Positions 408-50,256 of a stretch of 64,000 bases of DNA are shown here, in pieces. The first letter of the stretch is position 1. Each line of letters begins with the position of its first letter. The notes below the pieces were generated by a model that saw nothing but the letters and a program-made list of their open reading frames with translations, searched no databases and was not told where the DNA came from. This DNA comes from an uncultured archaeon (GTDB taxonomy: Archaea > Asgardarchaeota > Lokiarchaeia > Sigyniarchaeales > SOKP01): assembly GCA_964486045.1 (NCBI GenBank), contig CAZALK010000003.1, forward strand, positions 32,001 through 96,000, written 5' to 3'. Position numbers and translations under genes: made by a program.

Positions 408-505
408 AATAATTAAAAAGATTATGGATTTTATATTTGTTTCTCATAGTAATTCAAAGTAATTACTTTCACCCAAGAATTTTATACGTTCCAAGTTAAG
501 TTTTT

Positions 506-2680: not shown

Positions 2681-2800
2681 ATTTTTTCAAAATTCCTAAA
2701 AGTTCTTTTTTTTATTTTCCACTTCATTTTAAAGCATAAGTTTATGAAAAAACTTTTGGTTTATGTTTAAGATATCGAATAAAGAGAGGTTAAGGATTAG

Positions 2801-21205: not shown

Positions 21206-21558
21206 AACGATTCAATTAAATTTTTTGTTCCTGGAAAAGCTTACACAGATCAAATATCTGATATCGGATTTCCTACGGTAAAGTAGTGTACATTCTACGC
21301 TTTGCTGAAGTGTCATATATAATGCCTCACTACAAGAGTGTCGCGAATAGCGAACAACCTGCTCAATGGATTATTGGAGTAGTTGATTATAATCAGATTG
21401 TCTCACCCTTTAATGGATATATCGAACTTAAAAATTATTTTGATAAAACAATTGGGAAGAGAGATATCAAGGATATAAAAGATGTATTAACAGGTGAAAG
21501 CATCTTCTCTGAAATGGTCTTCGTTGATAGTTCCCCAACTGCCTTAATGGAGTCATAA
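21206..21558 (+). pseudogene. Frameshifted 3' fragment of a larger unknown protein
   Basis: SIKFFVPGKAYTDQISDIGFPT shifts frame near 21280 into the 90-aa ORF ending SSPTALMES*; no credible start. Confidence 0.45.
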
Positions 21559-21569
21559 TTTTGAATATT

Positions 21570-21695
21570 ATGAAATACAAGTTTATCTTTCCGGCTATTG
21601 GAGCTGCGGTAGTATTATTAGGGTTATTTTTCCCCTCAGGAACTTTAATCTTATTTCCATCAATATATAATAGATCTTCGGCCATCTCTAATTGA
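21570..21695 (+). pseudogene. 5' fragment of a membrane protein related to 37111..37662
   Basis: MKYKFIFPAIGAAVVLLGLFFPSG matches FIWILPLIGGLLTLIAIFTPAA; ends after 41 codons. Confidence 0.5.
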
Positions 21696-21753: not shown

Positions 21754-22181
21754 TTACTTTTTTTCAAAGATATCTTCGAAATCTCCTAAAGATTCATTAT
21801 TTTTTATCAATCGTATCACATCTGACCATCAAGATCCATATATAGACTCCCACGCTTCCAAGATATCAGGCTCAATAGGAAGATGATTCAATGAAAGACT
21901 TGAAAGGTTTGAAAAATTCTTAAAAGATTGGGGGAAGTTTAGTTATCAAATTATTATCTAAATTTAGAGAATAAAGTGCGTTTAAATTTCCAAATAGCTT
22001 TGGTAGTGATTTTATCTTATTGTTAGAAAGTTTTAGAGATTTAAGTGCAGTCAATTTACAAATTGAATCAGGAAGGGATGTTAAATTATTATGATCTAAA
22101 TGAAGTCCTTCAAGTTTAGTGAGATTTCCTATTGATGATGGGAGAGCATTCAATTCATTAAAGCTTAATGATAAATACTCC
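21754..22181 (-). pseudogene. LRR protein remnant (5'-truncated, frameshifted)
   Basis: Starts mid-repeat (EYLSLSFNELNALP) directly below the poly-T terminator of 22219..22539; +1 shift in the G5 run 21930-21934 restores LPQSFKNFSNLSSLSL; in-frame TGA at 21829-21831. Confidence 0.8.
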
Positions 22182-24574: not shown

Positions 24575-25065
24575 TTATTTTTGCATTCTAGAGTCCCAAC
24601 CGAGGATAATGTTCCTCCCAAATTTATTCTTTAATATTTTAAGTGATGAAGGGATGTCGACTATTCTGTTTTTTTTAACCTGCATCATTTCCAAATTTTG
24701 TAACTTTTCAATTGTTGGTGGGATTGTTGTCAATTTATTATTTCTTATCCAAAAATCCTTAATTGATTTTAATTTGTCTATATTATCAGGAAGTGATGTT
24801 ATCTGATTATTTGATGTATGTAACCATAAGAGTGATTCTAACGAAAGGATTGGGAGTGGAAATTCAGTAAACTGATTATACTCTAAAGATAATTCTTTCA
24901 AACAATGTAAGAAACCTAAATTTCGGGGTAAATCACTGAGGTTGTTATGATCTAAATTTATATATTCTAGTGATAAAATTTCTGATAATACTTCAGGGAT
25001 TGAGAGTAGATTATTATGTGAAAGATCTAATCTTTTCAAATGATCTAATGATGTTAATTTTGCTA
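24575..25065 (-). pseudogene. LRR protein, 5'-truncated
   Basis: Six 23-aa LxxLxLxxNxLxxLP repeats; frame begins mid-repeat (LAKLTSLDHLKRLDL) back-to-back with the GIY-YIG ORF. Confidence 0.75.
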
Positions 25066-25100
25066 GCGGGTTTGTCGCACTCCAGTGATTTTCCCAAGAT

Positions 25101-33057: not shown

Positions 33058-34407
33058 TTACTTTAAAAAATTATAAGCAAATAATGTATATACTTTCACT
33101 GAGTTAATAAAATCTCGAATTTCTATATATTCATTTGTTGTATGAGCAGTTCTGGCACTTCCAGGGCCAAAGAGAATTGTAGGAGGACAATAACCTTCAT
33201 TTCTTAAATAGTGAGCATCCGCAGAAGGGGGATAAAGAAAATAAAACGGTTTCTTCTTGTAGATGTCAGCTACAAGCTGATGTAAAAAATTTAAATCTGT
33301 AGAATTTTCCCAACCTTCCCAATACGAACCTTCTGAAGCGTTGATAATCTCCAAATAGACAAAAATGTCTTCAGGATTTCCTGTAGGTTCATCTCTAATA
33401 TCAAAACCTACTTCTTTTTTGATAAGCTCACTTAAGCCATTTATGATATCATTTTCTTTTTGTCCCGGTGACAATCTAAAATCGATTGTAGCTTCACACC
33501 TATCTGGAACAACATTATCTTTAATTCCCCCTTTAATCAAAGTTAAAACTTTTGTGGATTTTATTGCATCAAGAAGGGTTTTAAGCAATGGTTGTTCATT
33601 TAGAATTCTATTAAAGACATCTTCATTAACAAATGCGTCGCTAACTAATTTTTTCAACTGTTCCTTCTCAATTGGTGGTTTTACATACTGTATATATTTA
33701 TCAAGTTCACCTAATTTTTCTATTATTTTACTCATCATAGATATTGCATTTTTCCCTAGAGTAGGTAATGCTGCATGAGCGGAAATACCATTAGTGACTA
33801 CTTTCACTAACATACGACCTCTTTCACCTAAAATTATTGCTTTTGGTAAAGGACTGAGACCCGTAGGTTCCCCAATTATACAAAAATCTACAGAAATGTC
33901 CTTTAATTTATTATCCAAGCACCATTTGGTACCAAGTTTTCCATTAGTTTCTTCATCTGAAACGGCATTTAGGAACAGAGTTCCAGATAACGTTATTCCT
34001 AATTTTTTTAAGATCTTTAACGTTATAACCATTGCAGCTAGCCCTCCCTTCATATCAGTAGTACCTCTCCCAAAAATCCGTTTCCTTTTAATTGTTGCAG
34101 AAAGAGGGGGCATTTTCCATTCCTCTTCGGAACCGGGGGGAACAACATCCATATGCCCATTAAATAATAGATTTTTACCTTTAGAATCTTCATTCAATGT
34201 AGCTATTAAATTAGCCCGATTATCACCAAAAGGAAAAATTTCACAATTGATACCTACCTCGTTTAAATATTGTTCAATCATCATCGCTACATTTTTCTCG
34301 TTGCCCGGTGGATTGTAAGAATTTGTTTGAATCAAATCCCTTAGAAATTCGATATATTCCTCAGTATTATCTTCAATTTCTTGAATTATCAATTCTTCTT
34401 CCAACAT
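33058..34407 (-). CDS. M20 metallopeptidase, ArgE/DapE family
   Basis: NGHMDVVP, GRGTTDMKGG, SDEE, IGEP, DNVVP, AHTTNE. Confidence 0.92.
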   Translation of the reverse strand: MLEEELIIQEIEDNTEEYIEFLRDLIQTNSYNPPGNEKNVAMMIEQYLNEVGINCEIFPFGDNRANLIATLNEDSKGKNLLFNGHMDVVPPGSEEEWKMPPLSATIKRKRIFGRGTTDMKGGLAAMVITLKILKKLGITLSGTLFLNAVSDEETNGKLGTKWCLDNKLKDISVDFCIIGEPTGLSPLPKAIILGERGRMLVKVVTNGISAHAALPTLGKNAISMMSKIIEKLGELDKYIQYVKPPIEKEQLKKLVSDAFVNEDVFNRILNEQPLLKTLLDAIKSTKVLTLIKGGIKDNVVPDRCEATIDFRLSPGQKENDIINGLSELIKKEVGFDIRDEPTGNPEDIFVYLEIINASEGSYWEGWENSTDLNFLHQLVADIYKKKPFYFLYPPSADAHYLRNEGYCPPTILFGPGSARTAHTTNEYIEIRDFINSVKVYTLFAYNFLK

Positions 34408-34445
34408 CTTTCCCTTTATTTTATTTATATTTATTTATCAATTAC

Positions 34446-34505
34446 GACAGGATTAAAGAAATGGCTTACTGTAGTGGTGTCTGTTGCATGCTAGGTTTGA
34501 AAAAT
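34446..34505 (+). pseudogene. About 60-bp scrap resembling the HdrA YCSxxCCM motif
   Basis: DRIKEMAYCSGVCCMLGLKN versus HdrA RD...YCSRVCCMYxLK. Confidence 0.5.
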
Positions 34506-34847
34506 TTAATCACGGAAGAGAAAATAGCTTCATAATAGGTAGATATAATTAAACTTATCTTAAAGAATTTTCCCTAACTTTCTTCAAATCTCTCCTTTTA
34601 TTAAAATAAGTTCACTACTCTTCCTTTTCTTTTTTTTTTCCTTCCTGTATTAATGCCAAAAATCTTTTTTTAAAGCATGAAACAGAAACCACCAAAGATT
34701 TTTTTTAATTATAGAATATGTTATAAAAAAAAAAGAAGTTATATCTTATATTGAAATTTAAAGTCAAAAAAGAAAGAATTGAGGAACAAATGTAGAAAGT
34801 AAGTGTTAAAAACTATAATATTATAAATTATTATGGAGGAGTAGAAC

Positions 34848-35324
34848 TTGAAAAGTACTAAAAAGTTGGGACAACCAATTTCATCTAAAACAGGAGAACC
34901 ATTAAAGCCGTTTATAAAACCGAGGGATACATTACTACGAGGGATCATAATTATTAACTTTGGATTTTTTATGTGGTTGATAGCATATATAGGGGGAAAT
35001 AATTTTACTGACCCGTTAATTTTTTCATTTATTATAGGGTGTGTATTGATTTCTCGTGCAAAACTTGGCAATAAACATGTGCTGGCTCACCAAATAATCA
35101 TATTAATAAGCGATATCTTTACATTTATTATGGGATTTGTTTTATCAATATACTTTTGGTCAGCACCTAATCATCTATTGTTCATGATAATGGGTATTAT
35201 AATCATTATAGTACTTACCTTGGTCTCCATTATTCATTGTTTATATTGGCTCGTGAAGTTGGAGAAATACAAGGTTAAAAATGAAGTCTTTAGAAGAGAT
35301 CGTAACTCTATTATTTATGAATAA
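34848..35324 (+). CDS. Hypothetical 4-TM membrane protein
   Basis: Four hydrophobic helices after a basic N-terminus. Confidence 0.6.
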   Translation: MKSTKKLGQPISSKTGEPLKPFIKPRDTLLRGIIIINFGFFMWLIAYIGGNNFTDPLIFSFIIGCVLISRAKLGNKHVLAHQIIILISDIFTFIMGFVLSIYFWSAPNHLLFMIMGIIIIIVLTLVSIIHCLYWLVKLEKYKVKNEVFRRDRNSIIYE

Positions 35325-35335
35325 AATATTACTAA

Positions 35336-35509
35336 ATCAGCGGTCGATGCTATTTTTCTCAAGATATTTGCGGAAGTGAAGAAAAATCAGCAAACAGAGG
35401 AATGTTTGAACAACCATGTAGAAGAAAATGGGGGCTTCGCGAGGAAAATGGCACAGAATATATATATGGTGGTTTTAGAGGTAATTTTAGAGAACAATAT
35501 TCTTATTAA
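35336..35509 (+). pseudogene. Internal fragment of a U32-family (TrhP/RlhA-like) gene
   Basis: ISGRCYFSQDICGSEEKSANRGMFEQPCRRKW matches SGRCxxS..SANRGxCxQPCR; one Cys codon reads TTT. Confidence 0.75.
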
Positions 35510-35621
35510 ATAATTATTTTAAATTTTATACAAGTATAAGATATAAATAATTTATTGTAGTGTTAAGTATTTCTTTTTGAAATTTGATACTTGTAAAAAA
35601 TAATTAGAAATAATTAGAGTG

Positions 35622-36718
35622 AATGAAAATCGTTTAAGCATAATAATAATAATAGAAAATAAAAGTTATAAAACAAGTTATATTTTTTCTCCAATTTAAT
35701 CTTGTATTGTTAGATAAGTGCACCTTAAACTATTATAAACCGTGCCATTTATCATTATATGACTGTAATCAAAAGGTAAATTGTGAAAGAGAATGAACCT
35801 GAAGAGAGTTAAGATTAAGAACAAAATAATGTCAATTTCTACTAGTATATCTTCTTTTTTTATTCCAATTTTTCAGTACGTTCCCTGTTTATCTATATGG
35901 AGAGGCATAATGAGTGTTCCATTAATAACTTACTTAACCTTCTTCTTTCAAAATCCCAAAATTCTATCTACTGACTATTTTTTTTTATTTGGAAATCATG
36001 GCATTTATTTTATTATCTTTGGTTTCTGGTTTTTTATAATCTCATTAATATTTCAATTAACTCATAGAAATCAGTTAATTCGAACCGGACCATATAAGTA
36101 TATAAGGCACCCTCAATATCTTGCTTTCATTCTTATGACCTTTGGAATGACATTAATAGTGTTTCAGACAACCCCAGTTGTCGAATTTAATCCCTTTCAT
36201 CTTGAAGGTTATACCATTATCTTCTATACTTGGATCGGTGAAGTGTTAGCGTACATAATCTTAGGAAAGATTGAAGATTTTGCATTGAAAGCTAAATATG
36301 GTGATGAATTTATTGAGTATAAAAATACAGTATTTTTTTTGTTCCCAACCATAAATTTAAAGAAAAATGACCCCAAACATAGAATTGAGAAAGAATAAAC
36401 CAGGTAGCAATTTCAATTACTTTTATATCTTAAAATCATTACTCATAATTTCTTCATTAATTTTATTATTTATCATTTTAGTTCAACTTATTAATTTAAG
36501 TTTATATGAACAACTACCAGCCTTTAGAAAAATAGATAACCTCGAATCAATTACCATTTCTATTCTAATAACCGCAATCTTTTTAATCTCTGCTCTGACA
36601 TTACTTACGTTAAAAGAATTTAGAAGCTATATAATAAGGAGAAAATATATTCAAAACAGTAATTCTTATTTATCTCTTACTAATATCTTTGAAAATGAAA
36701 ATCGTTTAAGCATAATAA
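35622..36718 (+). repeat. Exact 25-bp dispersed direct repeat aatgaaaatcgtttaagcataataa (35622-35646 intergenic; 36694-36718 inside the HTH gene)
   Basis: Direct sequence comparison. Confidence 0.8.
35793..36398 (+). CDS. Isoprenylcysteine carboxyl methyltransferase / PEMT-family membrane protein
   Basis: LIRTGPYKYIRHPQY, IEDFALKAKYGDEFIEYK. Confidence 0.8.
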   Translation: MNLKRVKIKNKIMSISTSISSFFIPIFQYVPCLSIWRGIMSVPLITYLTFFFQNPKILSTDYFFLFGNHGIYFIIFGFWFFIISLIFQLTHRNQLIRTGPYKYIRHPQYLAFILMTFGMTLIVFQTTPVVEFNPFHLEGYTIIFYTWIGEVLAYIILGKIEDFALKAKYGDEFIEYKNTVFFLFPTINLKKNDPKHRIEKE

Positions 36719-37104
36719 ATCAAATCCTGGAGAATCCAGGGATTCATCATAACGAATTGCTACGAAATTGCAATTTACAAAAAGGTCAATTACGATGGCA
36801 TTTAGATGTATTGCTAAAATATCATATTATAAAAAAAAAAAAATATGGGCAATTTATTATATATTTTCCGATTACAACCTCGTTTGATGCTAATGAATAT
36901 TTAGGGAATCTTATTACAAAATCAAAAACTACTTTGGAGATCTTAAATATTATTAAAGAAAATCCAGGAATTAATTCTTCTGAAATAGCCCGAATTCTAA
37001 GCCTTTCTCGTAATACTATAAAATATCATATTGATAAATTATCAAAAGAGAAACTGGTTATATTAACCAAAAAAGGTCGTGAAATAGAGTTACATCCTAT
37101 TTAA
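36367..37104 (+). CDS. Membrane-anchored double winged-HTH transcription regulator
   Basis: Two TM helices, then ENPGIHHNELLR..GQLRWHL and ENPGINSSEIAR..TIKYHI. Confidence 0.85.
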   Translation: MTPNIELRKNKPGSNFNYFYILKSLLIISSLILLFIILVQLINLSLYEQLPAFRKIDNLESITISILITAIFLISALTLLTLKEFRSYIIRRKYIQNSNSYLSLTNIFENENRLSIINQILENPGIHHNELLRNCNLQKGQLRWHLDVLLKYHIIKKKKYGQFIIYFPITTSFDANEYLGNLITKSKTTLEILNIIKENPGINSSEIARILSLSRNTIKYHIDKLSKEKLVILTKKGREIELHPI

Positions 37105-37110
37105 CTTAGT

Positions 37111-37662
37111 TTGTTAATTAAATTTAGAGTGTTAAAAATTAAAATTAAAAATTTTATTTGGATATTGCCATTAATTGGCGGACTTCTAACGCTCATAGCA
37201 ATTTTTACCCCAGCAGCTTATAATTTTGAGAGTAGTGGGCACTTAATTTTTTGGATGTGGGGTTGGTATGATAGATTAGGCATATGGGATTATTGTATGG
37301 TAAAGGGATTAATTTCTGATCCGTTGATCCTTAATATTGGAACTATTTGTACTGTATTAATAATAGTTGTTGCATCCATCTTCGTCGTTAACAGCATTTC
37401 AGCGGCTTTGATATTTAGGAAAGGTAATAGGTTTACCAAAATTGTATTATGGGTATGGTTTTTAAGTGGAATTTTATTTATTATAGCACCAATCTTTTGG
37501 ATGGCAATGGTACAAATTTTTCCACCATTTTCACCAATTCCTGTTGGTAGTGACCCTCCTCTTAATTTTTGGAGGATATTTTTTCCAGGCTGGGCAATTA
37601 TAGCCCCAATTTTAACTGGTGCTTTATCTTGTGGCACTATTATTTTGTCACGGGTGGAGTAA
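37111..37662 (+). CDS. Hypothetical membrane protein
   Basis: WILPLIGGLL..FTPAA..WMWG..PGWAIIAPILTGAL. Confidence 0.65.
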   Translation: MLIKFRVLKIKIKNFIWILPLIGGLLTLIAIFTPAAYNFESSGHLIFWMWGWYDRLGIWDYCMVKGLISDPLILNIGTICTVLIIVVASIFVVNSISAALIFRKGNRFTKIVLWVWFLSGILFIIAPIFWMAMVQIFPPFSPIPVGSDPPLNFWRIFFPGWAIIAPILTGALSCGTIILSRVE

Positions 37663-37841
37663 ATCCAATTACAAATGAAAAAATGGATGATACTACTATT
37701 TCAAGAAGCGATATTGTTGGTGTCCCTGATTTATCCACGAAAGCAATCACAGGATCAAATACCAAGTTTATACAGAAAAGTAAAAAAAGCTTTTATATGA
37801 TTGTTGTATTCATATTATCTACTAAATGAGGGTGAAATTAA

Positions 37842-40010
37842 TTGAGAAAAAAATATAGATTAAATCTATTAATAATTGTATTAATTCTATCGTTTCTTTT
37901 TAGTTTCAACAATATTACTCAAAATTACACCAATCTTAGAGATCCTAACGAAGTTGCTAGTGCTGGAGCGCTCAACACTCTTATCGTTGGAACCATGTAT
38001 GGTCCAGTTGACCTTGATCCAATAGTGGCTTGGGATAGTGCGTCATTTGCTGTAATTGATCAAGTAGTTGAGGGTTTATTCGCATATGATTTAGGTGATC
38101 CTGATATGGCATTAATACCGCGACTTGCCAGCGCTTTTGGTACATGGAATAGTGGGGCTACTGAATATACTGTACCCCTCAGAACGGGTGTTACATTTCA
38201 TGATGGAACAAACTTTAATGCTGCTGCTGTTGTTGCTCACTGGGATAGAATTGCCTGGGCTTTAAACAGTACTGGCACTAACACAGTTGGTATAACTCAG
38301 GTAGCTGAGTTATATAAATTTCCAGATGGTACACCTATTGTGAATAATGTCACTGACAATGGTGACAATACCGTAACTTTTTACATAAATGATCCCTTTG
38401 TACCATTTGTATCTCTCTTATGCTTCAGTGCTTCATATATTCAGTCACCTACATATACAGCTACTTTGACAGATTATATTGATACATCTATTGAGATCAT
38501 CGTCGGAACGGGACCTTTTGTTTATGATTCATACGAAGCTGGTGTCGAAGTACTATTTCACGCTTTTGATGATTATTGGAAAGGAAAAGCGAACATTAGT
38601 GAATTAGTTTTTAAAGAAATTGTTGATCCAATAGCCAGAAACAATGCATTACTGGCGGGAGATATTCATTTTTTATCATCCCCTTTATCAACTATGATAG
38701 ACGCTTTCAAGGCTCATCCTAACATAACTGTGTTAGATGCCGGAAAAAAAAACGCAATTACACAATATCTTGGGATGAATAACAATAATATAAATAAGAC
38801 CTTCAGAGAGGCAATTTCATATGCAATCAATTATTCATATATAATCGATGAACTTAGAGAAGGTAATGCTGTCAGAATGAGATCTCCTATTCCAGAAGGA
38901 ATTATGTTTTCTAACACCACATTTGACGTACCGATTTTAAACCTGACACATGCAAGATTGGTAATGCAATCTATGGGATTTGGAGTAGGTTTTAACTTAT
39001 TTGCCGATACTGAATGGATAAATCAGAAAGCCACTGCTCCATTTGCAACATTTAATTATACTTATAATATTGGAAATACGTTGAGAGAAGATTTATTGAT
39101 TCTACTACAAGATAATCTCGGAAAAATTGGAATCAACGTAACCGAAGCTGGTATGACATGGGGAGATTTTATTTACTCGCTCTATGAAATCGGTGGTCGA
39201 CATAGAGATCATTTAGAACTTTATTTCATTGGATGGGGTCCTGATTATAATGATCCAAGCAACTTCATCAATCCATTGTTTACAAATAGATCTGTAGCTT
39301 CTAATGGAGTAGATTATAATGGTTACCTTGCAGCAATAGAGGATGGTAGAGATCCATTTGACCAGAATGACAATGTTCAGCTCTTAATGGAAGCGGCTAA
39401 TATCGAAACCGATCCAGTAGCAAGAGAAGCCATGTATGACAGAATTCAAGAACTTTTGATTGAGCGAGATTTTCCATGGGCTTTAGGTTATGTTTCAAAA
39501 ATATATCATGCTCATCATGTCAATTTAACTGGATTTCAACAAAATGCTTATAATAAGTTAGATTTCTATTCTTGTCAATGGGACTATTATAATCCCGCTA
39601 TTATACCAATAGTTGATTCCCTCTCTATTACTACTCCTGATAGCTCCAGTTCATGGGAAGCAGGTACTATTCATTCTATTGCATGGACATCAACAGGTAG
39701 TATCACAAATGTGCAAATTGAACTCTATATTTCAGGAATTCTTAACTTAGTTCTCACTTCGGGTACCCCGAACGATGGTGAGATATCATGGACAATTCCA
39801 TCTGAACTCACGAATTCTACGTTTTATCAGATAAAAATCACTGATTTGTCTAATTCTTCCACATATGGTTATAGTGATTATTTTGCGATATACGATCCCG
39901 CTATTACTGAAGAACCTATTCCAGGATATAGTCTCTACTTCCTATTTATGATACTAAGTATAGTCTCAGTGGTTCTGATAAAAAAGCAGTATAAACATTT
40001 AAAAAAATAA
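37842..40010 (+). CDS. ABC peptide-binding protein (SBP family 5) with Ser/Thr-rich Ig-like domain and IPGY-TM sorting tail
   Basis: DLDP, LRTGVTFHDGT, VGTGPF, GWGPDYNDP; C-terminal IPGYSLYFLFMILSIVSVVLIKK; no permease or ATPase nearby. Confidence 0.88.
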   Translation: MRKKYRLNLLIIVLILSFLFSFNNITQNYTNLRDPNEVASAGALNTLIVGTMYGPVDLDPIVAWDSASFAVIDQVVEGLFAYDLGDPDMALIPRLASAFGTWNSGATEYTVPLRTGVTFHDGTNFNAAAVVAHWDRIAWALNSTGTNTVGITQVAELYKFPDGTPIVNNVTDNGDNTVTFYINDPFVPFVSLLCFSASYIQSPTYTATLTDYIDTSIEIIVGTGPFVYDSYEAGVEVLFHAFDDYWKGKANISELVFKEIVDPIARNNALLAGDIHFLSSPLSTMIDAFKAHPNITVLDAGKKNAITQYLGMNNNNINKTFREAISYAINYSYIIDELREGNAVRMRSPIPEGIMFSNTTFDVPILNLTHARLVMQSMGFGVGFNLFADTEWINQKATAPFATFNYTYNIGNTLREDLLILLQDNLGKIGINVTEAGMTWGDFIYSLYEIGGRHRDHLELYFIGWGPDYNDPSNFINPLFTNRSVASNGVDYNGYLAAIEDGRDPFDQNDNVQLLMEAANIETDPVAREAMYDRIQELLIERDFPWALGYVSKIYHAHHVNLTGFQQNAYNKLDFYSCQWDYYNPAIIPIVDSLSITTPDSSSSWEAGTIHSIAWTSTGSITNVQIELYISGILNLVLTSGTPNDGEISWTIPSELTNSTFYQIKITDLSNSSTYGYSDYFAIYDPAITEEPIPGYSLYFLFMILSIVSVVLIKKQYKHLKK

Positions 40011-40540
40011 AAACTTTTTTTTTTACTTTCGTTACAACATTTCATTGATTAACTCTGATCTTTTCATCCGCTTCTGTTATCAACTCCATCAAGTTTAACT
40101 TAAAGCATAAATCTGCTTATAAAGAATTATTAGAGCTATTAAGGATTCATTTAATAATTGGAAACTCTTTCATTAAAAATTTTTTTGAATTATTTTAATA
40201 TTTCATAATCTCGTATAAAATTAATCTAATCTTTAATATCTAGCAAAATGTAGAATTATATCTTTATTATGATAAATAAATTTAATTGAATAAAGAATTA
40301 ATGTTTTAGAACGGTTAGATTAAAAAAAAATAGAAAATGGATCATAAATTTTAAGAAAAAACTCCTTGAAAAAAGTTACTAGATCCTCGAAAAGTAACAT
40401 CTTTTTTCTGCTTAATTTTTACTATAGGAATTATAACCAGATTAATTAAACCTCCCTCATGAGAGGCATTTCGAGCATTTACAAGTGAAGATTTAGACTG
40501 GTCTTCTAACTCCCTAAAAGCAGGTGCACAGAAAGGTTAT

Positions 40541-43500
40541 ATGAAAAAGATTGCCGAAGCATTCTATAGGGAACAAATCTTAAGCGTTTTTGAAGAAGCA
40601 AAGGGGAATCATCAAGAATTGCAAAAGGTTAGGGAAAATATTGTTAAAGCCGTTCAATGGAATTTACTTAAGAAATTATCATTAAGTAGAACTTCTATAA
40701 AATTAGGTAGTCCTATAATTCATACTCTTGGGAATTCAGTCGATGAGCAAAACTCCATATTTAATGGTTTATTTGATAATCTAAAACAGCTTGTAGGTAA
40801 TAAGAAGATATTTGCCGAAGATCAAGACCAAATTGATGGAGGAGCGTTATTTTCGATTTCAGTACTTCAGTGTCTTTTGGATGCTATAGCTTCGTTTGCA
40901 ATTAAGTCTGATGGTATTGTTAATAAGCTTTTCCGTTTCAATACAGCCCTACAGTCTATTCAGGGTACTGAGTTTGAGAACGTTCTAACTCTTGAGATAT
41001 TACCAAGAACAATTCTCTCATATTATGATGCAAAATATGATAAAATGATTGATAAAAACGGGAAAGAAGTTGATCACCGCGAATTGTGGAAAATTCATAC
41101 TCAGACTTCAAGGGAATTAAAAAGTAAACTTTTTGGACCGGCAAGCTATTTTTCCAAAAATGATTATGGTTTATTCGATGTTTTTGGTAGGCAGTATCTA
41201 ATTCGGGGTGACCAATTAATAATTGTTGGAAATATTGCCAAACATTCTAAAGAAGATAGAAGTTTTACATTTGAGCAATCTATGATAGGTTTAGATGCAT
41301 TCAGAAATGTCTATGACACATTATTGGAGGTAGCAGACGATCCTAACAAGTTTAACCCTGATAAGACCACAATTAGAATTAATTTTAACAGTCCTATGTT
41401 TAATCGCGAACTAAATAATATTGAAGCTTTTATCGATGTTGTTTTAACTGACTTGATGAAAAGAGGTAGTATTGGTCAACAAACTGTAGGGGTATCTGGT
41501 CAATATGATACAAAATGGGCCAAATTGTCAAAATCTGATGTAATTAAGTATTATACAATTAACGCATTAAATGAATTGTTACAGAATGTAGAAGGCTACA
41601 TTGGTACTACTCCTGTAGAGAGTAATCTTCTTAAACATTCATTTAGAAAGATGCTTCTGAAAGTGGATTCTAATTTCATAGAGACCTTAAAAAACGATTT
41701 ATTTAAAAAATACAGAATAAATAAAGGAGATATTATAGATTTAGATAATTTTATTCGCAATAAAGTTGCTGGGAATGTTGAACATTACTATGGTGCTTAT
41801 TTAGGGAATGATGGAAGTGTTAAATACGGTTTAGTACTTGGTGCAGTTATAGAGACATATTTACCTGGAGCTTCTAATGAACAAGTTTCAATTTATAATA
41901 TAAAAGATTCCCGATTTGATTCAAGTAATTTGGAATCTAATAAAGATTATGATAAAGAGACAGGAAATTTGTTGGGTCCATACACATTTGCTTTCAAAAT
42001 CAAGGATAACAAGATTACTTATCGGTTATATAAAGTAAGATCAAATCTTAAGTTAGAAGGCGGTTGGCAGATTGGGATCCCAGATTTAGAGACAGGAGAG
42101 ATTATTAGTGTTATAATTACTGATGGAAATGGACGCAAGCTATATGGCAGAATAAAATACGAAGGCTATAGTATAACAGAGAGAGTCGGTGGGGTTCATT
42201 GGTGGCGTTCAAGTAGTATGAAGTCTATAAAAGAGAATAATTATATTAGGAATCTTAAAGGAACAGGCGTAGGAGATTATAGTGGTATACGAGTCATAAA
42301 CGCCATGTTCACTAGATATGGGGATATGAACCAAATAATGTGGGTGACTACAGATTTGATAAACCCATACCTAGATTTTGACTTTTCGCACGATTTTTAC
42401 ACTATACTCTACAAGAATTTTCCTATACCTTCCAGACGACCGAAATCTGGAATTATTAATATGCTTCCATTCTTACGGCAATTTCCGATCACTGCGGATA
42501 TTTTAGCGAAAGAATCGAGTATGCGAGATTTAGTACTAACGCATATTTTCGATATAGCCCAAAAAATTATTGATCATAGTGGACTCTCAGAATATTTACC
42601 AGTATATGATAATATACTCAAAGTCTTAAACGCGTATGAAGACAAATCTGGTGTTATACATTTGGGACCAGGTTATAAAGAATTGAGCCATTTATTTAAA
42701 ACAGTTATTGGTAGTAGTGCTTATAGCTTCAGTTTCAATAATTTTAGGGATGACATCGAAGATATTAATCACTTGACTTACAATAAAGACCAATCCTTCA
42801 AGGATTGGTTAAAAATAGCTTTGGATCTTTATCAAAACTATCAATTACCCTCTAGGGGGAATTCTGATCCCGTCCTAAAGGCATTAGATGAAAAAATTAG
42901 GGCAGAAATTTTCGATTCAATAGGCAATAATAAATTCGTTAAAGGAGGTGTGCCAAGAACATTCTCTGATGGAGATGATTTCTTACAAGGATACGACGGG
43001 CATGAAGATAAAGTGTTAATAGAAGAGATCATTTCTACAACTACCAATCTTTATGGAGGCTTTACTTTATCAAAACTTCTTACAGGTTCAATCTTCGTTC
43101 AGAATGGAAGAGTACAATTTGCATTACTAACTTGGGATTCTTTATTTAAAGCACATAAAAACGCAGGATTAGTTAATGAGCATCTTAATGTTAAATTCCC
43201 CAGTTCCACTTCTTATACCACTGCTCAAAGTCAGGTTGTTGATGAAATGATACTTCGACCTAGTATTGAAGTTACTATTAAATACGGTGTAAACGAGGAA
43301 GTAGAATTTATTCAAATCCCTCATATTCCTACTGATTACTGGGATCCAAACATCAAAAGTCAAAATGAAGTTAGTATCGAAAGTTTAGATTTAACCAAAT
43401 ACTCTAATGGGTTATCTAATCTATTATTAAAATATTGGGGAAAGAAGCAGCGTTCTCAAATTGTTTATAGAACTCAGAGGGCTTATGGAAACCGATTAGT

Positions 43501-44512
43501 TTATAATGTCTTATTTGAAAAATACAAAGAACAAATTGAAAATAATATCGCTGATGATGAGACACAATTTATTTATCTAAATGTAATAGGTCAGTTATTA
43601 TATCAATATATTTATTACGGACATGGTCCAGCTTTAACGAATTATAGAAAAATGTTCCAAAAGTTTTTGGTAGATGGGGGAAAGGAAACACTTGAATTAT
43701 TAGGATTAATACCTTTGCCGACGATTAATGGAATCAATTTTAAAGAAATTATATTAAGCGACCTTGATTTACGTAAATGGTATGATGATGGTATAGTTGA
43801 TATAATGCATAATTCTTTAACACCTATTGGAGTTGTGAGTGTTAAAGAATACAGTGCGAAGGAAATAATTAGAAATCTAAATGAGCCAATTTCGAGTTTT
43901 GGAAACTCTTTAAAAAATTTAGCTCTTAGATTTGGAAAACCATCTAAAGGTTCTAAGAAAATATATATCATCCCCCAAGGCATCACTTCTGGTGGATTGG
44001 GACAGTATTATGAAATCCCCAATCAGTTCATAGCAGCAGCAAATAAAATAGTTAAATTGAATAATAAGGATTTCTATTCTTGGGAAATTGATGGGACAAA
44101 TAACGGTGATAACTTAGTTGGCTTTAATAAGCATTATAAAGATGTTGTAAGAGCCTTTCTTGAAGGGTATAAAACATTATTTATTTTTGCTGCTATCGAA
44201 TCTGGTGGTGAGGTCACTCAAATTGAGGGTATAGGCTCTCTCAATATATTATCTGGTGCTCTATTACCTTCTGAATATGCCGATGATTATACAAATCAAT
44301 TAATAGATGGTTATTTCAATTCAGATAATCATTATCATTCATTGGAAGGCATAACATTCTACGATAGTGAGTTTTATAGCAAAGAAAATAAGTATAATAT
44401 CATAAATATCATGAATTCATTTAGAGCATATAATTCGTATACCGTTCCCTTTTCTAAATTTAATAAATATCAAGAAGCTTGGAACTTAATCAATTCCATG
44501 TTTTCTTTTTAA
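40541..44512 (+). CDS. Large unknown protein, probably the 3' part of a giant gene (frame open from 40463)
   Basis: Frame continues 26 codons upstream of the ATG to a TGA at 40460; no signal peptide or recognisable domain. Confidence 0.65.
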   Translation: MKKIAEAFYREQILSVFEEAKGNHQELQKVRENIVKAVQWNLLKKLSLSRTSIKLGSPIIHTLGNSVDEQNSIFNGLFDNLKQLVGNKKIFAEDQDQIDGGALFSISVLQCLLDAIASFAIKSDGIVNKLFRFNTALQSIQGTEFENVLTLEILPRTILSYYDAKYDKMIDKNGKEVDHRELWKIHTQTSRELKSKLFGPASYFSKNDYGLFDVFGRQYLIRGDQLIIVGNIAKHSKEDRSFTFEQSMIGLDAFRNVYDTLLEVADDPNKFNPDKTTIRINFNSPMFNRELNNIEAFIDVVLTDLMKRGSIGQQTVGVSGQYDTKWAKLSKSDVIKYYTINALNELLQNVEGYIGTTPVESNLLKHSFRKMLLKVDSNFIETLKNDLFKKYRINKGDIIDLDNFIRNKVAGNVEHYYGAYLGNDGSVKYGLVLGAVIETYLPGASNEQVSIYNIKDSRFDSSNLESNKDYDKETGNLLGPYTFAFKIKDNKITYRLYKVRSNLKLEGGWQIGIPDLETGEIISVIITDGNGRKLYGRIKYEGYSITERVGGVHWWRSSSMKSIKENNYIRNLKGTGVGDYSGIRVINAMFTRYGDMNQIMWVTTDLINPYLDFDFSHDFYTILYKNFPIPSRRPKSGIINMLPFLRQFPITADILAKESSMRDLVLTHIFDIAQKIIDHSGLSEYLPVYDNILKVLNAYEDKSGVIHLGPGYKELSHLFKTVIGSSAYSFSFNNFRDDIEDINHLTYNKDQSFKDWLKIALDLYQNYQLPSRGNSDPVLKALDEKIRAEIFDSIGNNKFVKGGVPRTFSDGDDFLQGYDGHEDKVLIEEIISTTTNLYGGFTLSKLLTGSIFVQNGRVQFALLTWDSLFKAHKNAGLVNEHLNVKFPSSTSYTTAQSQVVDEMILRPSIEVTIKYGVNEEVEFIQIPHIPTDYWDPNIKSQNEVSIESLDLTKYSNGLSNLLLKYWGKKQRSQIVYRTQRAYGNRLVYNVLFEKYKEQIENNIADDETQFIYLNVIGQLLYQYIYYGHGPALTNYRKMFQKFLVDGGKETLELLGLIPLPTINGINFKEIILSDLDLRKWYDDGIVDIMHNSLTPIGVVSVKEYSAKEIIRNLNEPISSFGNSLKNLALRFGKPSKGSKKIYIIPQGITSGGLGQYYEIPNQFIAAANKIVKLNNKDFYSWEIDGTNNGDNLVGFNKHYKDVVRAFLEGYKTLFIFAAIESGGEVTQIEGIGSLNILSGALLPSEYADDYTNQLIDGYFNSDNHYHSLEGITFYDSEFYSKENKYNIINIMNSFRAYNSYTVPFSKFNKYQEAWNLINSMFSF

Positions 44513-44653
44513 TTTTTTTTGTTTTTTATTGTAATTTGATGACAATTTTTCTTAGATAAAAAAGTTTATTTGTTTAAATTTTAACGAGTGTATACATTTA
44601 AATTAATAAATCATCATTTATTTCATTAGACGTGTTTAAAAGTCGAAAGCATT

Positions 44654-45733
44654 ATGAAAGAGTTTAAAATAAATGAATTTTTATCATTGAGATTAGAGGA
44701 TAATAAGGCCAATATTTATGTTGACAATGAATTATTTAGGCAATGTAAGTTCTTATTGATTAATATTCCGATTAAGGATGTAGATACATTTGATGAAATT
44801 GGGTCTATTGATGAAATTGAGATGAGATCTGATCGTTCATTAGAATTCAGGGAGCCTGCTAAGATAAATATTCCTCTTGAGACTGAGTTTTGGGCTCATT
44901 GCTCAAATTTACAAGTTTGGTATGAGAATAATTATGACACATGCCTTTTACATAGTAATTTAGCCTTTCCACTCCTAAAAAGATTAGAAAAAGTTGGGGA
45001 TCCGCTTGCAAAAAGAAGATTTAAGGAAGAGATAGCCAAAAGATTTGAGGGAGGGTATTTTCCTACGATCTATTTTCTATTAGAGGAAGGGTATGACGAA
45101 TATCTTTCGAGGGAAGAATTATTTTTAAGTTTATTAGGACAAGATGAAGAAGCAGAAGAAAAGACAAGAATTATTCTAGAACTGGAAAGATTGATAAACG
45201 ATAAGTTTCATATCGAGGATTTTCTTAATGGCGAATTTAATGGGATTAAAATAGTGAATCATAGAGTCATAGGATTATCAATTGCGCATACAAATATAGA
45301 AATGCTTCCAGAATCTATAGGCAATTTCAAGTATCTAAAAAAGATCTTTATAGATTATACTAAACTAAAAAAGCTTCCAGGGGCATTTAAAAATCTTAAA
45401 TCTCTTGAATTTCTCGACATATCTAATAATGAACTAAATGAAATTCCCGAATCTATTTGTGCGTTAAACACGCTTAAAAAACTTATCATGTGTAATAATA
45501 AGATAATAACAATACCAGAATCTATTAAAAATTTGAAGTCTCTTGAACTTTTAAATCTAGGAGGGAACAGAATCAAGGTTCTACCTGACTCTATTATGGA
45601 AATTCAATCACTTAAGGATATCTTTTTAGAAGATAATGAATTAATCTCACTTCCAGAATCTATAAGAACTATGAATTCTTTGAAATCTTTGAATGTAAGA
45701 GGAAATGAACTCTTGAAATTAGATAAGGGCTGA
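44654..45733 (+). CDS. LRR protein with Lokiarchaeia-type N-terminal domain
   Basis: EFKINEFLSLRLE..FRQCKFLL..EFWAHCSNLQVW..LLHSNLAFPLLK..GDPLAK..FKEEI then about six 23-aa LRRs. Confidence 0.85.
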   Translation: MKEFKINEFLSLRLEDNKANIYVDNELFRQCKFLLINIPIKDVDTFDEIGSIDEIEMRSDRSLEFREPAKINIPLETEFWAHCSNLQVWYENNYDTCLLHSNLAFPLLKRLEKVGDPLAKRRFKEEIAKRFEGGYFPTIYFLLEEGYDEYLSREELFLSLLGQDEEAEEKTRIILELERLINDKFHIEDFLNGEFNGIKIVNHRVIGLSIAHTNIEMLPESIGNFKYLKKIFIDYTKLKKLPGAFKNLKSLEFLDISNNELNEIPESICALNTLKKLIMCNNKIITIPESIKNLKSLELLNLGGNRIKVLPDSIMEIQSLKDIFLEDNELISLPESIRTMNSLKSLNVRGNELLKLDKG

Positions 45734-45958
45734 ACTTTTAATATTAGAGTAAATTGCAATTAAATTAGCACGATTATCTCCAAAAGGAAAAAGTTCACAG
45801 TTAATATTTGCATCCTTTAAATATTGTTCAATCTTCAATGCAACATTTTTTTCATTGCCAGGGGGATTGTAAGATTCAGTTTGAATCAGATCTCTAAAAA
45901 ATTCAATATATTCCTCAGTATTATTTTCAATTTCTTGGATTATTAATTCTTCATTCAA
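45719..45958 (-). pseudogene. Truncated 5' copy of the M20 peptidase gene
   Basis: First 68 codons match 33058..34407 (57/68 aa identical by manual count), then diverge at LIA|IYS. Confidence 0.9.
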
Positions 45959-46122
45959 CGCTTTACCTCAAGATTTATTGTTCTTATTTTAATTTTAAAG
46001 AAAATTCGATTGCTATAAATATTTTGTTATATGGCAATCTAACTGATAGATTTAAAAATTTAGGAAATTTTAATACTTTTAAATGATTTTATAATCAAAA
46101 ATTAGGTTTCACGGTTATTTTC

Positions 46123-49100
46123 TTGATTCGACAAAAAAAAGAGATTAAAAGAATAGTCATTGTCGTAATTTTTATTACATTTATTTTAATAACCAATTTC
46201 CACTTTCTTAATCATTCCAATCTAATAGATGAAAATAATGACGAAAATCAAGGATTAGAGATTTTTCCTAAAACTTCTGATCTTAATATAACAGATTTTA
46301 TTCTTGGTAGTGGAGACGACCAAGATGTTAGAATATATGTAAATAACGAATCTAGCAATTTAAACGATAACGAAGATTTTTTCGATATTCCCTCAATTCC
46401 TACAGACGATATGTTTCTCACTTATGGTGATTTTAATTTCACATTTCAAAATAATTACACAACAGATTACATTCTTGAGGATGACACTGCTTTAGATGCA
46501 GCAGATTTCATATCCTTTGATTTTGATGAGGATCCATCCAATTCAGATTATATTCCGGGAGTTGGAACATCAGTTATTGGAGGATCGTTCAGCGATTTAG
46601 TTGACAGTTCAAATTCAACCAACCTGTGGTTACAATCAAATGCCACAAATAATATATTAAATTTTACAATAAAAGCAAATTATACAGATGAAACTTATAC
46701 AAACATAGGGGTGATCAATGGTAATGTAGAGTTCGATAGAACTGATATATTAGCTCTAATTCTCTCATTACTTTTTGACCTTACTCTTGATGCTAATTTG
46801 ACAATAAGAATAAAGGATTATACACAACCAACTTGGGTTAATTTGACTGATCCAATTCTGGTTAATAGTAGTATAGGTATACAGGAGATTAACCGTAAGA
46901 TTATTAATGAAAATTTGAATTTCATTGATTTATCAGATGTTTGTTATTTACAATTCTTTTTTGAGAGAAGTGACCTTGCTTCATTTGATGGCCGATTCTA
47001 CAACTTAGAATTAGAATCAACCTACGCATTTGATCTACCTATAACTAATAATAGCTATGTCGCTTTAGAATTTGACTTAAAGGGGGAAAATTCGACTGTA
47101 AATGGATTTAATGTTTGGATAAGGACCTTAAATTTGACTCAGGCGGCAATAACACAACTAAATATTACACTGTATAGAGCAGATGGTACTTTAGTTCGAT
47201 CAGGTGGGACAGGTGGGAGTTTACGAGGTACTCAGTTAAACCCAGATTACAATGAACCGATAGATCCAATATTATTATTAAATTATACTAAAGACAACAT
47301 TTCCTATTTTGAGTTTAATACTTCTAACACTCAAAATCTAAACCTTTCAAATTACTTTGTTGTGATAAAATCAAATAACTCAAATGAAGTGTACAGTCTA
47401 GTAACTTTGCCCTATATTGATTATACCGCAGATGGGATAACTGAACACCAATTAATAACTACAATCAATGATGGAATTAGTTGGTCATTAGCTAAAAAAC
47501 AAGTAGATACTACCATTTCAACATACCCTTCAGGTCAATTAGATGCTAGTCCTTTTAGGTTGAACGTCACTAGAGGATATATGCCATCAGATTTTATATA
47601 CAATGCTACCAATACACTAAAAATTCAAGATATTCCAATAGAAAATTTAGAAATTAGCTCCTATCCATATAATGAAAGTTCTTATTTAACTTGGGGATTA
47701 GGGAGATGGACTAATACCTTTATTGAACCAATTGAAGATACTCTCGCAAATGAATTTGAAGTTTACTTACAATGGAATAAAACTGTTATTGAGGGTTTTA
47801 AATTCAATGTTACTTATTCTATAAAAGCTTATTGGATTGTAGGCGCTCAAGCATTTTATAATGCAACTTATAATGAAAATCCTGAATGGAATTTAGAGTT
47901 CGATTTTGATAAAAATAATTCAAAATTCAATAATTGGGATTTTTTTGAATTTTGGTTTGTTTATCCTAACTTCATGAATGCTCATAATTTGACAAATCCA
48001 AATGGAGAAGAGTTTCTTTGGTTATTAGAACAAGAATCAATTTTAACAGAGAATCCAACTATGTTTAAACTTGTAATTAATGAATCTTATTCCAGTCTTA
48101 ATGGTTCATACACACTTAATTTAACGAGTTACAATTTCATTCAACAGATTCACAGTTATATTAACTATAATGGAATTTTATCAGAAACAGTTGGTTTCAT
48201 GTATGGAGATAACATATCGATTAGCCTTGATATCCAAGACCAGAATCTTGACGCCCCTATAAGTGGTGATGCAAACGTTACCCTTTTTTACCCAAATGGA
48301 ACTAAATATCCTGGAGCGATATTGTTTGATTCAACAGGAGATGTTGATGGATCAGTATTATCTTACGATTTCAATAACAACACGATTCTAGATTTGACAG
48401 ATGCGGTTACAGTTTTTGGGGAATATAAATTAGGAATCCTTTGGTTAAATGGTTCCGCCTTAGGATGCAAAAAGATAACTTTATATATTGATTCATACGA
48501 TCTCGATTTATATAATTTAACCTATTCTTCGAACCTAGGGACTAATGTTCTTATTGGAGAAATAAATAATAAGGTATTTCAAAATTACACAATGTTAATT
48601 GCATCAATTAACGATACAACAGGTATCCCAAATCCAAATTTTTATGCTATAAATAATTCAAATATCAATCAAGAATATTCTTATAATTTTGAAGGATGGG
48701 ATCTACCCATTTTGCTTGAATCATTTCTGCAAAGTGAAAATATCTTAAACCCGAATGAAATTATCAACTTTAAGACAACAATTCAAAATGCACACGAAAC
48801 GTTCAATTTAACTATTAAAATCCTTACACAAATAGTATCTTATCTCAATGAAGATTGGATTATAGCTGAAAATTCTTCAAACTCAATTACATTAAATTCC
48901 TCCGGTTCCCCAAATGATAGTTATGAATTTGACTTTAATCTTACAATTCCAAATTTAAATATAGCTACACAAACTTGGATGGGTGTAAATGCACCTATCA
49001 GATTAGGGGGTGCAAAAACAATAGTTACTTTATATATCGAGGATAACGTTGCAGGGATATATAAAAGTCCTGAATTCTCACTTTTAAGTAATAAAACAAG

Positions 49101-50256
49101 TGATAATTTTGAGGGTTATATTCTTGGTTTGACAATTTCTGAAAAGATCACAAGTCGAAGCATTTTATATGAATTTGACAGAGACGAATGTATTTACTTT
49201 CCAGATAATTCATCATTTTTAGTTAATATCATTGATGAAAATTATGTTAGCAGTTATAGACAATTCAATGACGAATTTTCTATAAAACTTAATAGTATAT
49301 TTACAAATATCACTATTGAACCAAACTCTCCCATCAAAGGTCAATCAATAAATTTTAGTTCAACTTTAACTACTGAATTTGGAGTAGTGTTATCAAATAA
49401 AAATGTCACTTGTGAGTATTTTGACTCGAGTTCATGGGTAGAAATTGCTACAGGTATAACTGATTCCAACGGTCACGTTACCTTTAATATTGACACTATG
49501 GTTATCGATTTTGAGGATGATTTGCAATTACAATTATCTTGGGATGGGGATATCATAAATGGAGTTTCAAAGAATGCTTTCATAAATATTTTGCATGAAA
49601 CAAACGGCATTTCAATTTTAGTTAGCCAGATTGATGTTTTAATATACAGAAACAGACTAACAACAATAAAATACATTCTAAGTAATATAGGAGACTCTGA
49701 CTTAAGACTTTTTAACATTACAGTGGATATTGAAAATAATTTACAATATACAACCGTAGAAATAAATTATGTTGAATTAAATTGGTTCTCTTCTGGAGAT
49801 AACACAGATATAATAATTGAAATTTCAATATCAGAAGTCAGCCAACTTCAAGTTAATTTTACAATTACAGCCCAAAATGTTATTACAGGAGAAATATTCA
49901 CTTTCTTCAAGGAATCTTCTTATGCCGTTTTTGATCCTCCAATAACAGATTATGTAATTGAGTTTTTCATGTTTACTATAATTGTCATTTTCGGTATTAT
50001 TTGGCTTGCAGCAATAATCTATACTCGTCGAGTAAGGAAAAGAATTGAAGAACCGGTTGAAGTTCCGTTGAGAAAACCGAGAAAGGGCAAATATATAATG
50101 GTATCCGATCTTAAAAAACCAACTCCAGAGAAAAAGGTTCCCAAGAAAAAAGTAGAACAAAAAGAAGTCAAACCAAAAAAGACGACAGACTTAGATTCCT
50201 TGTTAGAAGAAAGAGGCTTAGCTGAAAAACAAAAAAAGAAAAATTCTAAAAAGTAA
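46123..50256 (+). CDS. Large type-I membrane surface glycoprotein (1377 aa)
   Basis: N-terminal hydrophobic signal, many N-x-S/T sequons, beta-rich body, C-terminal TM, Lys-rich tail ending DLDSLLEERGL. Confidence 0.75.
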   Translation: MIRQKKEIKRIVIVVIFITFILITNFHFLNHSNLIDENNDENQGLEIFPKTSDLNITDFILGSGDDQDVRIYVNNESSNLNDNEDFFDIPSIPTDDMFLTYGDFNFTFQNNYTTDYILEDDTALDAADFISFDFDEDPSNSDYIPGVGTSVIGGSFSDLVDSSNSTNLWLQSNATNNILNFTIKANYTDETYTNIGVINGNVEFDRTDILALILSLLFDLTLDANLTIRIKDYTQPTWVNLTDPILVNSSIGIQEINRKIINENLNFIDLSDVCYLQFFFERSDLASFDGRFYNLELESTYAFDLPITNNSYVALEFDLKGENSTVNGFNVWIRTLNLTQAAITQLNITLYRADGTLVRSGGTGGSLRGTQLNPDYNEPIDPILLLNYTKDNISYFEFNTSNTQNLNLSNYFVVIKSNNSNEVYSLVTLPYIDYTADGITEHQLITTINDGISWSLAKKQVDTTISTYPSGQLDASPFRLNVTRGYMPSDFIYNATNTLKIQDIPIENLEISSYPYNESSYLTWGLGRWTNTFIEPIEDTLANEFEVYLQWNKTVIEGFKFNVTYSIKAYWIVGAQAFYNATYNENPEWNLEFDFDKNNSKFNNWDFFEFWFVYPNFMNAHNLTNPNGEEFLWLLEQESILTENPTMFKLVINESYSSLNGSYTLNLTSYNFIQQIHSYINYNGILSETVGFMYGDNISISLDIQDQNLDAPISGDANVTLFYPNGTKYPGAILFDSTGDVDGSVLSYDFNNNTILDLTDAVTVFGEYKLGILWLNGSALGCKKITLYIDSYDLDLYNLTYSSNLGTNVLIGEINNKVFQNYTMLIASINDTTGIPNPNFYAINNSNINQEYSYNFEGWDLPILLESFLQSENILNPNEIINFKTTIQNAHETFNLTIKILTQIVSYLNEDWIIAENSSNSITLNSSGSPNDSYEFDFNLTIPNLNIATQTWMGVNAPIRLGGAKTIVTLYIEDNVAGIYKSPEFSLLSNKTSDNFEGYILGLTISEKITSRSILYEFDRDECIYFPDNSSFLVNIIDENYVSSYRQFNDEFSIKLNSIFTNITIEPNSPIKGQSINFSSTLTTEFGVVLSNKNVTCEYFDSSSWVEIATGITDSNGHVTFNIDTMVIDFEDDLQLQLSWDGDIINGVSKNAFINILHETNGISILVSQIDVLIYRNRLTTIKYILSNIGDSDLRLFNITVDIENNLQYTTVEINYVELNWFSSGDNTDIIIEISISEVSQLQVNFTITAQNVITGEIFTFFKESSYAVFDPPITDYVIEFFMFTIIVIFGIIWLAAIIYTRRVRKRIEEPVEVPLRKPRKGKYIMVSDLKKPTPEKKVPKKKVEQKEVKPKKTTDLDSLLEERGLAEKQKKKNSKK

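Follow-up and report, generated by a model that had tools for sequence, protein, structure and literature searches.

The 64,000-nucleotide stretch analysed here (the window; G000:C3:32001-96000, about 30% GC) belongs to the genome of an uncultured Lokiarchaeial archaeon, G000, and carries a long open reading frame (ORF) followed by a gene for a leucine-rich repeat (LRR) protein. The ORF at 40541-44512 is called B1323, the LRR gene at 44654-45733 is called C359, and amino acids (aa) 1-165 of C359 are called the N-domain. The reading that best fits the comparisons below, and that is held to be moderately probable as a whole, is that B1323 is an orphan copy of an exchangeable cargo module from the tip of giant proteins, and that C359 is its linked cytoplasmic partner, putatively neutralising it. 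The parts of the locus are as follows.

40011-40540, no strand: AT-rich spacer 5' of B1323, 530 bp, including 40338-40462; translations inspected, profile and blastn searches negative.
40541-44512, forward strand: B1323, by homology and its 0 N-X-S/T sequons a 5'-truncated stand-alone copy of the C-terminal cargo module (about 1,200-1,400 aa) of type-II giants.
44513-44653, no strand: spacer between B1323 and C359, 141 bp (102-125 bp at four other co-directional pairs in G000).
44654-45148, forward strand: N-domain of C359 (aa 1-165), Asgard-specific, with invariant C31, H82, S84, N85, E91 and D116.
45269-45733, forward strand: LRR part of C359, about 6-7 repeats of 23 aa, then the stop codon; Pfam LRR_8/LRR_14, repeats at 138-nt spacing.

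Two groups of giant proteins are encoded in G000. Type I includes C7 (at least 9,498 aa), C8 (at least 9,447 aa), C4 (5,217 aa) and C23 (1,868 aa); type II consists of C10g and C9g, encoded on contigs 10 and 9. C7 and C8 are 78% identical up to residue 8882, and their last 560-620 aa are unrelated. The type-II pair is built in the same way: 75% identity up to residues 1986/2037, then about 1,400 unrelated C-terminal aa. B1323 aa 142-1314 align with C10g aa 2233-3369 (27% identity, E ~1e-90), and identity to the giant C-terminal modules is 27-33% over about 1,150 aa. Judged by this homology, B1323 is a tip of the C10g kind. C10g itself is at least 3,382 aa long, its frame running off the end of contig 10. 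By eye, C10g residues ~1900-1986 (L003, minus strand), just before the C10g/C9g break, have a ubiquitin-like beta-grasp look.

Module relatives were sought among open frames in 154 genomes of the order, and a module profile was run in a full HMMER scan of 1.84 billion representatives (cut-off E <1e-3). The profile found 120 relatives at this threshold; many are fragments, and several have a Met start at scattered profile positions. In the genomes, the B1323-type module lies within open frames of 12,779 aa (G085), 2,632 aa (G032) and 1,628 aa (G057) and within short ORFs of 771 aa (G065) and 681 aa (G063). A seven-sequence alignment spans the whole module. The distribution is patchy, the family occurring in 8 of 400 genomes of the phylum. 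The closest relatives of B1323 are the metagenome fragments P0023 and P0043 (59-67% identical); a near-length search of 5.8 billion proteins with B1323 returned only B1323 itself, and a metagenome-contig locus search with B1323 alone gave no match. In 94% of 65 aligned relatives the module ends in Phe (encoded at 44507-44509 in B1323), as part of an NFxF-like ending. This terminal Phe could be a sorting or processing signal.

The G085 giant is complete and begins with about 460 hydrophilic, Lys-rich residues, followed by six transmembrane (TM) helices (467-695) and a long sequon-bearing region. It is encoded on the minus strand of L059 (G085:C95:26000-45900) as the 12,779-aa frame and has no classical signal peptide. 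The full-length order is an N-terminal cytoplasmic region, six TM helices, an ectodomain of thousands of residues, a Gly-rich hairpin region, a junction and the module. C10g retains upstream parts that are missing from B1323, namely two TM segments (1035-1081) and a hydrophobic Gly-rich hairpin region (1588-1785). Sizes within the family step down in a series of nested truncations, from 12,779 aa through at least 3,382, at least 2,313, 1,568, 1,323 and 771 to 681 aa. The 1,568-aa form (G057) has the junction and no TM segment; it also retains the equivalent of the C10g ~1900-1986 stretch.

Within this series, B1323 has lost everything before the module and part of the module itself. No anchor, stalk, hydrophobic hairpin or junction is found in B1323, and no relic of them in the DNA upstream. 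B1323 aa 11-167 match positions 140-268 of the module's N-terminal profile, which puts the start of B1323 about 140 positions into the module; for profile positions 1-139, neither B1323 nor the DNA 5' of it has an equivalent. The original prediction described a headless ORF of 1,323 aa, and homology to full-length giants bears this out: B1323 is homologous to the variable C-terminal module found in C10g, G085, G032 and G057, and it lacks the head. With every delivery part lost, B1323 would therefore not be deployable.

A TGA at 40460-40462 closes the frame of B1323 on the 5' side, so that it is open from 40463; the earliest in-frame start codon is ATG 40541, and the predicted ORF is thereby confirmed. 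A Shine-Dalgarno (SD)-like AGGT lies 4-8 nt before this ATG, and an SD-like AGGTG lies 19 nt before it; SD-like motifs are enriched upstream of starts across G000. B1323 shows no signal peptide and no strong TM segment in its sequence, and Pfam finds no family in B1323 or in six relatives, as the prediction had also stated. The prediction further took the stop-ridden stretch upstream for degenerate coding sequence. In the B1323 frame, the 41 codons of 40338-40460 include 3 stops, as many as chance gives at 30% GC; the profile of the module's missing N-terminal part matches none of the frames 5' of 40541, and blastn detects nothing related in the spacer. Because of this chance stop rate and the lack of profile or blastn matches, the degenerate reading is unsupported, and 40338-40460 is ordinary AT-rich spacer, not detectably degenerate coding sequence. 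A decayed signal anchor in the same stretch was considered and rejected: the stop density is that of chance, and the stretch looks hydrophobic because of its T-rich codons.

Apart from the loss of the head, no decay is visible in B1323. It retains the consensus residue at 18 of 18 positions that are at least 80% conserved in the family, including the C-terminal Phe. An intact ORF that is preceded by an SD-like motif and keeps its conserved positions points to recent truncation, continuing selection, or both.

The module is nearly devoid of N-X-S/T sequons. B1323 has 0 against 12.2 +/- 3.2 expected, the 120 module relatives together have 23 against 438 expected, and every giant tip tested in G000 has 0. 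The genome-wide observed/expected ratio is 1.08 (ORFs of at least 300 aa). The giant ectodomain carries sequons at or above the expected rate; cytoplasmic proteins show no avoidance, and neither do the 37 N-domain LRR proteins (102 against 107 expected). Two surface proteins in the window lie above expectation, with 53 sequons against 24 in the one at 46123 and 16 against 8 in the solute-binding protein at 37842. Among the G000 ORFs with at least 8 expected sequons, only 3 of 94 have none: B1323, the truncated C8 giant (1,939 aa) and C8:148452 (959 aa). All three adjoin N-domain LRR genes, and all three are giant-type modules. Homologs of C8:148452 and of a further zero-sequon ORF, C11:170240 (615 aa), lie within frames of 13,906, 14,557 and 9,240 aa in other genomes. 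The near absence of sequons therefore indicates strong, long-term selection against glycosylation sites in the module. Such avoidance would be expected only if the module passes the outer-face oligosaccharyltransferase yet must stay glycan-free.

In G057 a second ORF without sequons (at least 1,110 aa, 12.1 expected) is found 3.5 kb 5' of the B1323-like gene, at 3-3335 on the forward strand of L060 (G057:C64:10000-24000). This ORF may encode a further module of an array.

C359 is a protein of 359 aa with an N-terminal domain of about 165 aa that contains EFWAHCSNLQVW, followed by six to seven LRRs; the predicted intact LRR gene with the EFWAHCSNLQVW domain, 141 bp downstream of the large ORF, is thus present at 44654-45733. 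Pfam places LRR_8/LRR_14/LRR_4 at aa 248-353. No hydrophobic segment is seen in the sequence, and by Pfam and sequence C359 is an LRR protein without an export signal. Because hydrophobic segments are lacking and the family shows no sequon avoidance, the C359-type partner is probably cytoplasmic. Orthologs of C359 in metagenomes are 78-84% identical, and the ratio of nonsynonymous to synonymous substitution rates (dN/dS) against an 80%-identical ortholog is 0.26; judged by this ratio, C359 is under purifying selection.

A hidden Markov model (HMM) of the N-domain finds 37 full copies in G000. The family as a whole comprises 1,332 clusters in several Asgard lineages, and the N-domain also occurs fused to tetratricopeptide repeats (TPRs), to Rab-like GTPases and to a Rad51/KaiC-like domain. 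Among paralogs the N-domain is 50-60% identical and the repeats are variable. Across 93 homologs, C31, H82, S84, N85, E91, Y94 and D116 are invariant and C83 and H100 near-invariant, a pattern that points to a metal or active site. Position 83 is Ser in the 80% ortholog of C359 on L034. The predicted structure of the N-domain (predicted local distance difference test, pLDDT, 82) is a beta-hairpin sheet with a helical bundle; Foldseek gives no match at E <1, the best VIA Z is 4.0, and no PDB match was found.

Modules and N-domain genes are physically linked. In G000, 5 of the 37 N-domain copies lie 102-141 bp 3' of giant-family ORFs on the same strand (C3, C7, C8b, C9, C10), against a background in which ORFs of at least 1,200 aa make up 1.2% of all ORFs. 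Two further N-domain genes are convergent with zero-sequon module ORFs, with overlaps of 4-8 nt. Of the 8 loci of the B1323 module family whose context could be read, 7 have an N-domain gene immediately next to the module's 3' end, co-directionally at G000 C3 and G000 C10 and tail-to-tail at G085, G057, G032, G063 and G026; the link is tight and has lasted through changes of orientation. The 771-aa module of G065 has no N-domain partner. Such a partner accompanies three stand-alone modules: B1323 (1323 aa) and those of G057 (1568 aa) and G063 (681 aa). In the tree, the N-domain genes beside the C10g, G085 and G057 modules group as a single clade (support 96/89). Large zero-sequon ORFs are enriched beside N-domain genes in G000 (Fisher p=2e-4). 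This linkage is genuine, but it concerns a subset (about 7 of the 37 N-domain genes in G000) and does not extend to the N-domain family as a whole.

The function of the module was sought by sequence and by structure. A PDB sequence search with the module profile gave no match. The AlphaFold2 (AF2) model of B1323 has a mean pLDDT of 78, rising above 90 for aa 643-1323. The Foldseek check proposed with the original prediction was run on the 1200-aa module model and, like a VIA-wide search (best VIA Z 4.8), found no match; VIA with a whole model is weak for single domains, and the module may therefore still hold a known fold. Peptidase_C13/C14 appeared as a candidate in the Atlas (0.81-0.85, noise level) and was rejected as an active peptidase, the module having no conserved His or Cys.

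B1323 and C359 lie at the right edge of a strain-specific island. The island and the other features of the window are as follows.

34202-34437, no strand: left copy of a 236-nt direct repeat, the 5' end of an M20 peptidase gene (sequence, synteny).
34438-45755, no strand: strain-specific island; the repeats enclose about 11.3 kb, and their starts are 11,554 nt apart.
45756-45991, no strand: right copy of the 236-nt direct repeat, starting 22 nt after the C359 stop codon, 80% identical to the left copy.
25059-27041, forward strand: 5'-truncated type-I giant tip (646-aa ORF from 25101); homology to giants starts before the start codon.
24575-25039, reverse strand: LRR-only remnant of 154 aa, no N-domain, abutting the truncation point of the 646-aa ORF.
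21920-22153, reverse strand: LRR-only remnant of 77 aa, no N-domain.

Besides the pair, the island contains an ICMT-like gene, a gene for a helix-turn-helix (HTH) regulator and the gene for the solute-binding protein. It is missing at the same site in six congeners, where the M20 peptidase gene directly adjoins the ortholog of the 46123 surface protein gene. Given this repeat-bounded island and its absence from congeners, the pair therefore probably arrived within a recombination island, detached from any giant gene. A 79-aa ORF at 45719-45958 on the reverse strand overlaps the right repeat copy. Inside the island, a perfect 25-nt direct repeat occurs at 35622-35646, 5' of the ICMT-like gene, and at 36694-36718, inside the HTH regulator gene. 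The surface protein beyond the island (46123-50256; 1,377 aa, signal anchor, C-terminal TM segment) is single-copy and conserved in 52 of 54 genus genomes; it may be an S-layer protein or major surface glycoprotein.

The layout of B1323 and C359 had been predicted to recur at 25101 and, in decayed form, at 21206-21695, and all three LRR genes of the window had been placed in these blocks. At 25101 the truncated giant tip is there: the 646-aa ORF is 65-84% identical to type-I giants from 25059-25062 onward, upstream of its GTG, and retains the junction. Its partner, however, is a non-LRR protein. The decayed copy at 21206-21695 does not hold up, as no tblastn match to any giant or C-terminal module was found there at E <10. 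As for the three LRR genes, C359 alone is intact, and the other two are the short LRR-only remnants listed above.

These observations can be joined into one proposed mechanism. The module would be exported unfolded past the oligosaccharyltransferase and would have to stay glycan-free because it has another membrane to cross later. It would then be delivered into a neighbouring cell as a putative toxin-like effector, and the LRR partner would bind and neutralise it in the producer's cytoplasm. B1323 and its partner would have arrived as a cassette in the recombination island.

Several observations weigh against this reading. The module showed no toxin fold, catalytic motif or known domain in Pfam, PDB, Foldseek, VIA or Atlas searches; its conserved residues are mostly Gly, Pro and aromatic residues, together with N697, K754, D823, R1036 and D1184; and at about 1,200 aa it far exceeds typical toxin tips in size. 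The N-domain is common to the GTPase and TPR fusions, which is unusual for simple immunity proteins. C359 falls in a polytomy outside the clade of the homologous modules' partners, and its best BLAST paralogs are unlinked genes elsewhere in the genome. Only about 7 of the 37 N-domain genes in G000 adjoin giant-type modules, and 0 of 24 metagenome N-domain loci have a large zero-sequon ORF beside the N-domain gene; the metagenome-locus search with C359's 84% ortholog as query missed the 9.5-kb contig on which that ortholog lies. Of the seven linked pairs, five are convergent and hence not co-transcribed. B1323, finally, lacks junction homology for recombining back into a giant gene. The original proposal cast the expanded LRR family as partners of giant proteins; the linkage at seven of eight loci and the enrichment in G000 uphold it for the module-linked subset, and the unlinked majority, the metagenome loci, the TPR and GTPase fusions and the position of C359 in the tree speak against extending it to the whole family.

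One alternative is that B1323 and C359 form a working intracellular pair and no dead relic, with ATG 40541 a genuine start and the module made in the cytoplasm and restrained by the LRR protein; the pair would then act like a toxin-antitoxin (addiction) cassette and stabilise the island. The orphan-copy reading overlaps with this one, from which it differs only in the present-day role. It would account for the 1323 codons kept intact in a 30% GC genome, for the SD-like AGGT of a type enriched upstream of starts, for the 18 of 18 conserved positions, for purifying selection on C359, for the location at a mobile-island edge and for the recurrence of stand-alone module and LRR pairs (C8:148452, C11:170240, G063). 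The stand-alone relatives, however, start at profile positions 58, 215, 261, 336, 368, 464 and others, and such scatter looks like random truncation, not conserved architecture. A working pair is accordingly a serious but tentative possibility. A role of the N-domain LRR protein in export, as chaperone or adaptor and not as antidote, with its LRRs holding the module unfolded and its N-domain docking to a common secretion or processing machine, is judged decidedly unlikely. A strongly conserved N-domain beside variable repeats fits a shared docking function, and linkage to the module is conserved; but headless modules that could not be exported (B1323, G063, C8:148452, C11:170240) still retain the partner, about 30 of the 37 N-domain genes stand without a module, like orphan immunity genes, and in convergent pairs expression of the partner is uncoupled from the giant's.

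In a further explanation the module is no toxin: a giant surface fibre would end in a variable tip that serves recognition or adhesion (kin recognition or cell-cell contact), B1323 would be a spare allele or one in decay, and the LRR gene would be a linked regulator. The sequon avoidance (23 against 438) goes far beyond what a binding surface would need, whereas the ectodomain has sequons at or above expectation; in addition, a hydrophobic hairpin region precedes the module in the giants, and a probably cytoplasmic partner has no obvious role for an external adhesin. Even though the module is large and multi-domain and has no catalytic signature, and although the available part of the Thermococcales account provides a precedent for a hypervariable module on a large surface protein with no known toxin (PMC8416519), an adhesion tip is very unlikely. 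Equally to be weighed is that N-domain LRR and TPR proteins act as Asgard intracellular sensors, whose repeats recognise toxin-like modules and whose N-domain carries out a common effector step; this is unlikely, if slightly less so than the chaperone.

The orphan-copy reading finds its nearest parallel in bacterial polymorphic toxins (CdiA-CT/CdiI, Rhs, MafB; PMC3482391). In both, a very large surface protein combines a conserved body with a C-terminal module that can be exchanged, and identity between paralogs breaks off sharply (C10g/C9g; type-I giants). Both also have a small partner gene linked to the module at its 3' end (here adjacency is all that is seen), truncated stand-alone cassettes of module and partner, and a patchy distribution. 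Unlike those systems, the host is an archaeon, the carrier has an N-terminal six-TM anchor and no dedicated secretion system, the module of about 1,200 aa has no known toxin domain, and the partner is often convergent. B1323 also differs from bacterial orphan cassettes in having no junction stretch for re-insertion. C359 resembles Imm-LRR (PMC3482391) as a cytoplasmic LRR protein encoded beside a variable toxin-like module. It differs in its conserved, Asgard-specific N-domain of 160 aa, which is also fused to TPRs and Rab-like GTPases and has no PDB fold match, and most members of the N-domain family are unlinked to any module. By analogy with these systems, a toxin-immunity function of B1323-C359 is plausible.

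Among archaea, the Thermococcales Ig-domain module (PMC8416519) is similar in that, in the part of the account available, a large variable surface protein is accompanied by variable downstream genes and a conflict or self/non-self role is proposed. The families are unrelated, and the same part of that account reports no LRR partner, no carrier of more than 9,000 aa and no sequon avoidance. Polymorphic toxin systems and most immunity superfamilies were described as scarce in archaea (Zhang et al. 2012; PMC3482391), and a 2026 preprint describes Asgard LRR proteins as functionally unresolved. No account of such a system in Asgard archaea was found in the searchable literature.

No prokaryotes are more closely related to eukaryotes than the Asgard archaea, and LRR proteins are expanded in both. 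The locus and its relatives offer a testable role for a subset of Asgard LRR proteins as dedicated partners of exchangeable giant-protein tips, and they add an orphan cassette to an apparent archaeal analogue of bacterial contact-dependent toxin systems. Sequon avoidance could serve as a sequence-only marker for exported but unglycosylated cargo, usable in any archaeal genome. If the sensor reading were true, the N-domain proteins would be a prokaryotic counterpart of LRR innate immune receptors, and B1323-C359 a toxin/sensor addiction cassette. On the orphan-copy reading, the sequence comparisons suggest that part of the Asgard LRR expansion partners, and probably neutralises, toxin-like tips.

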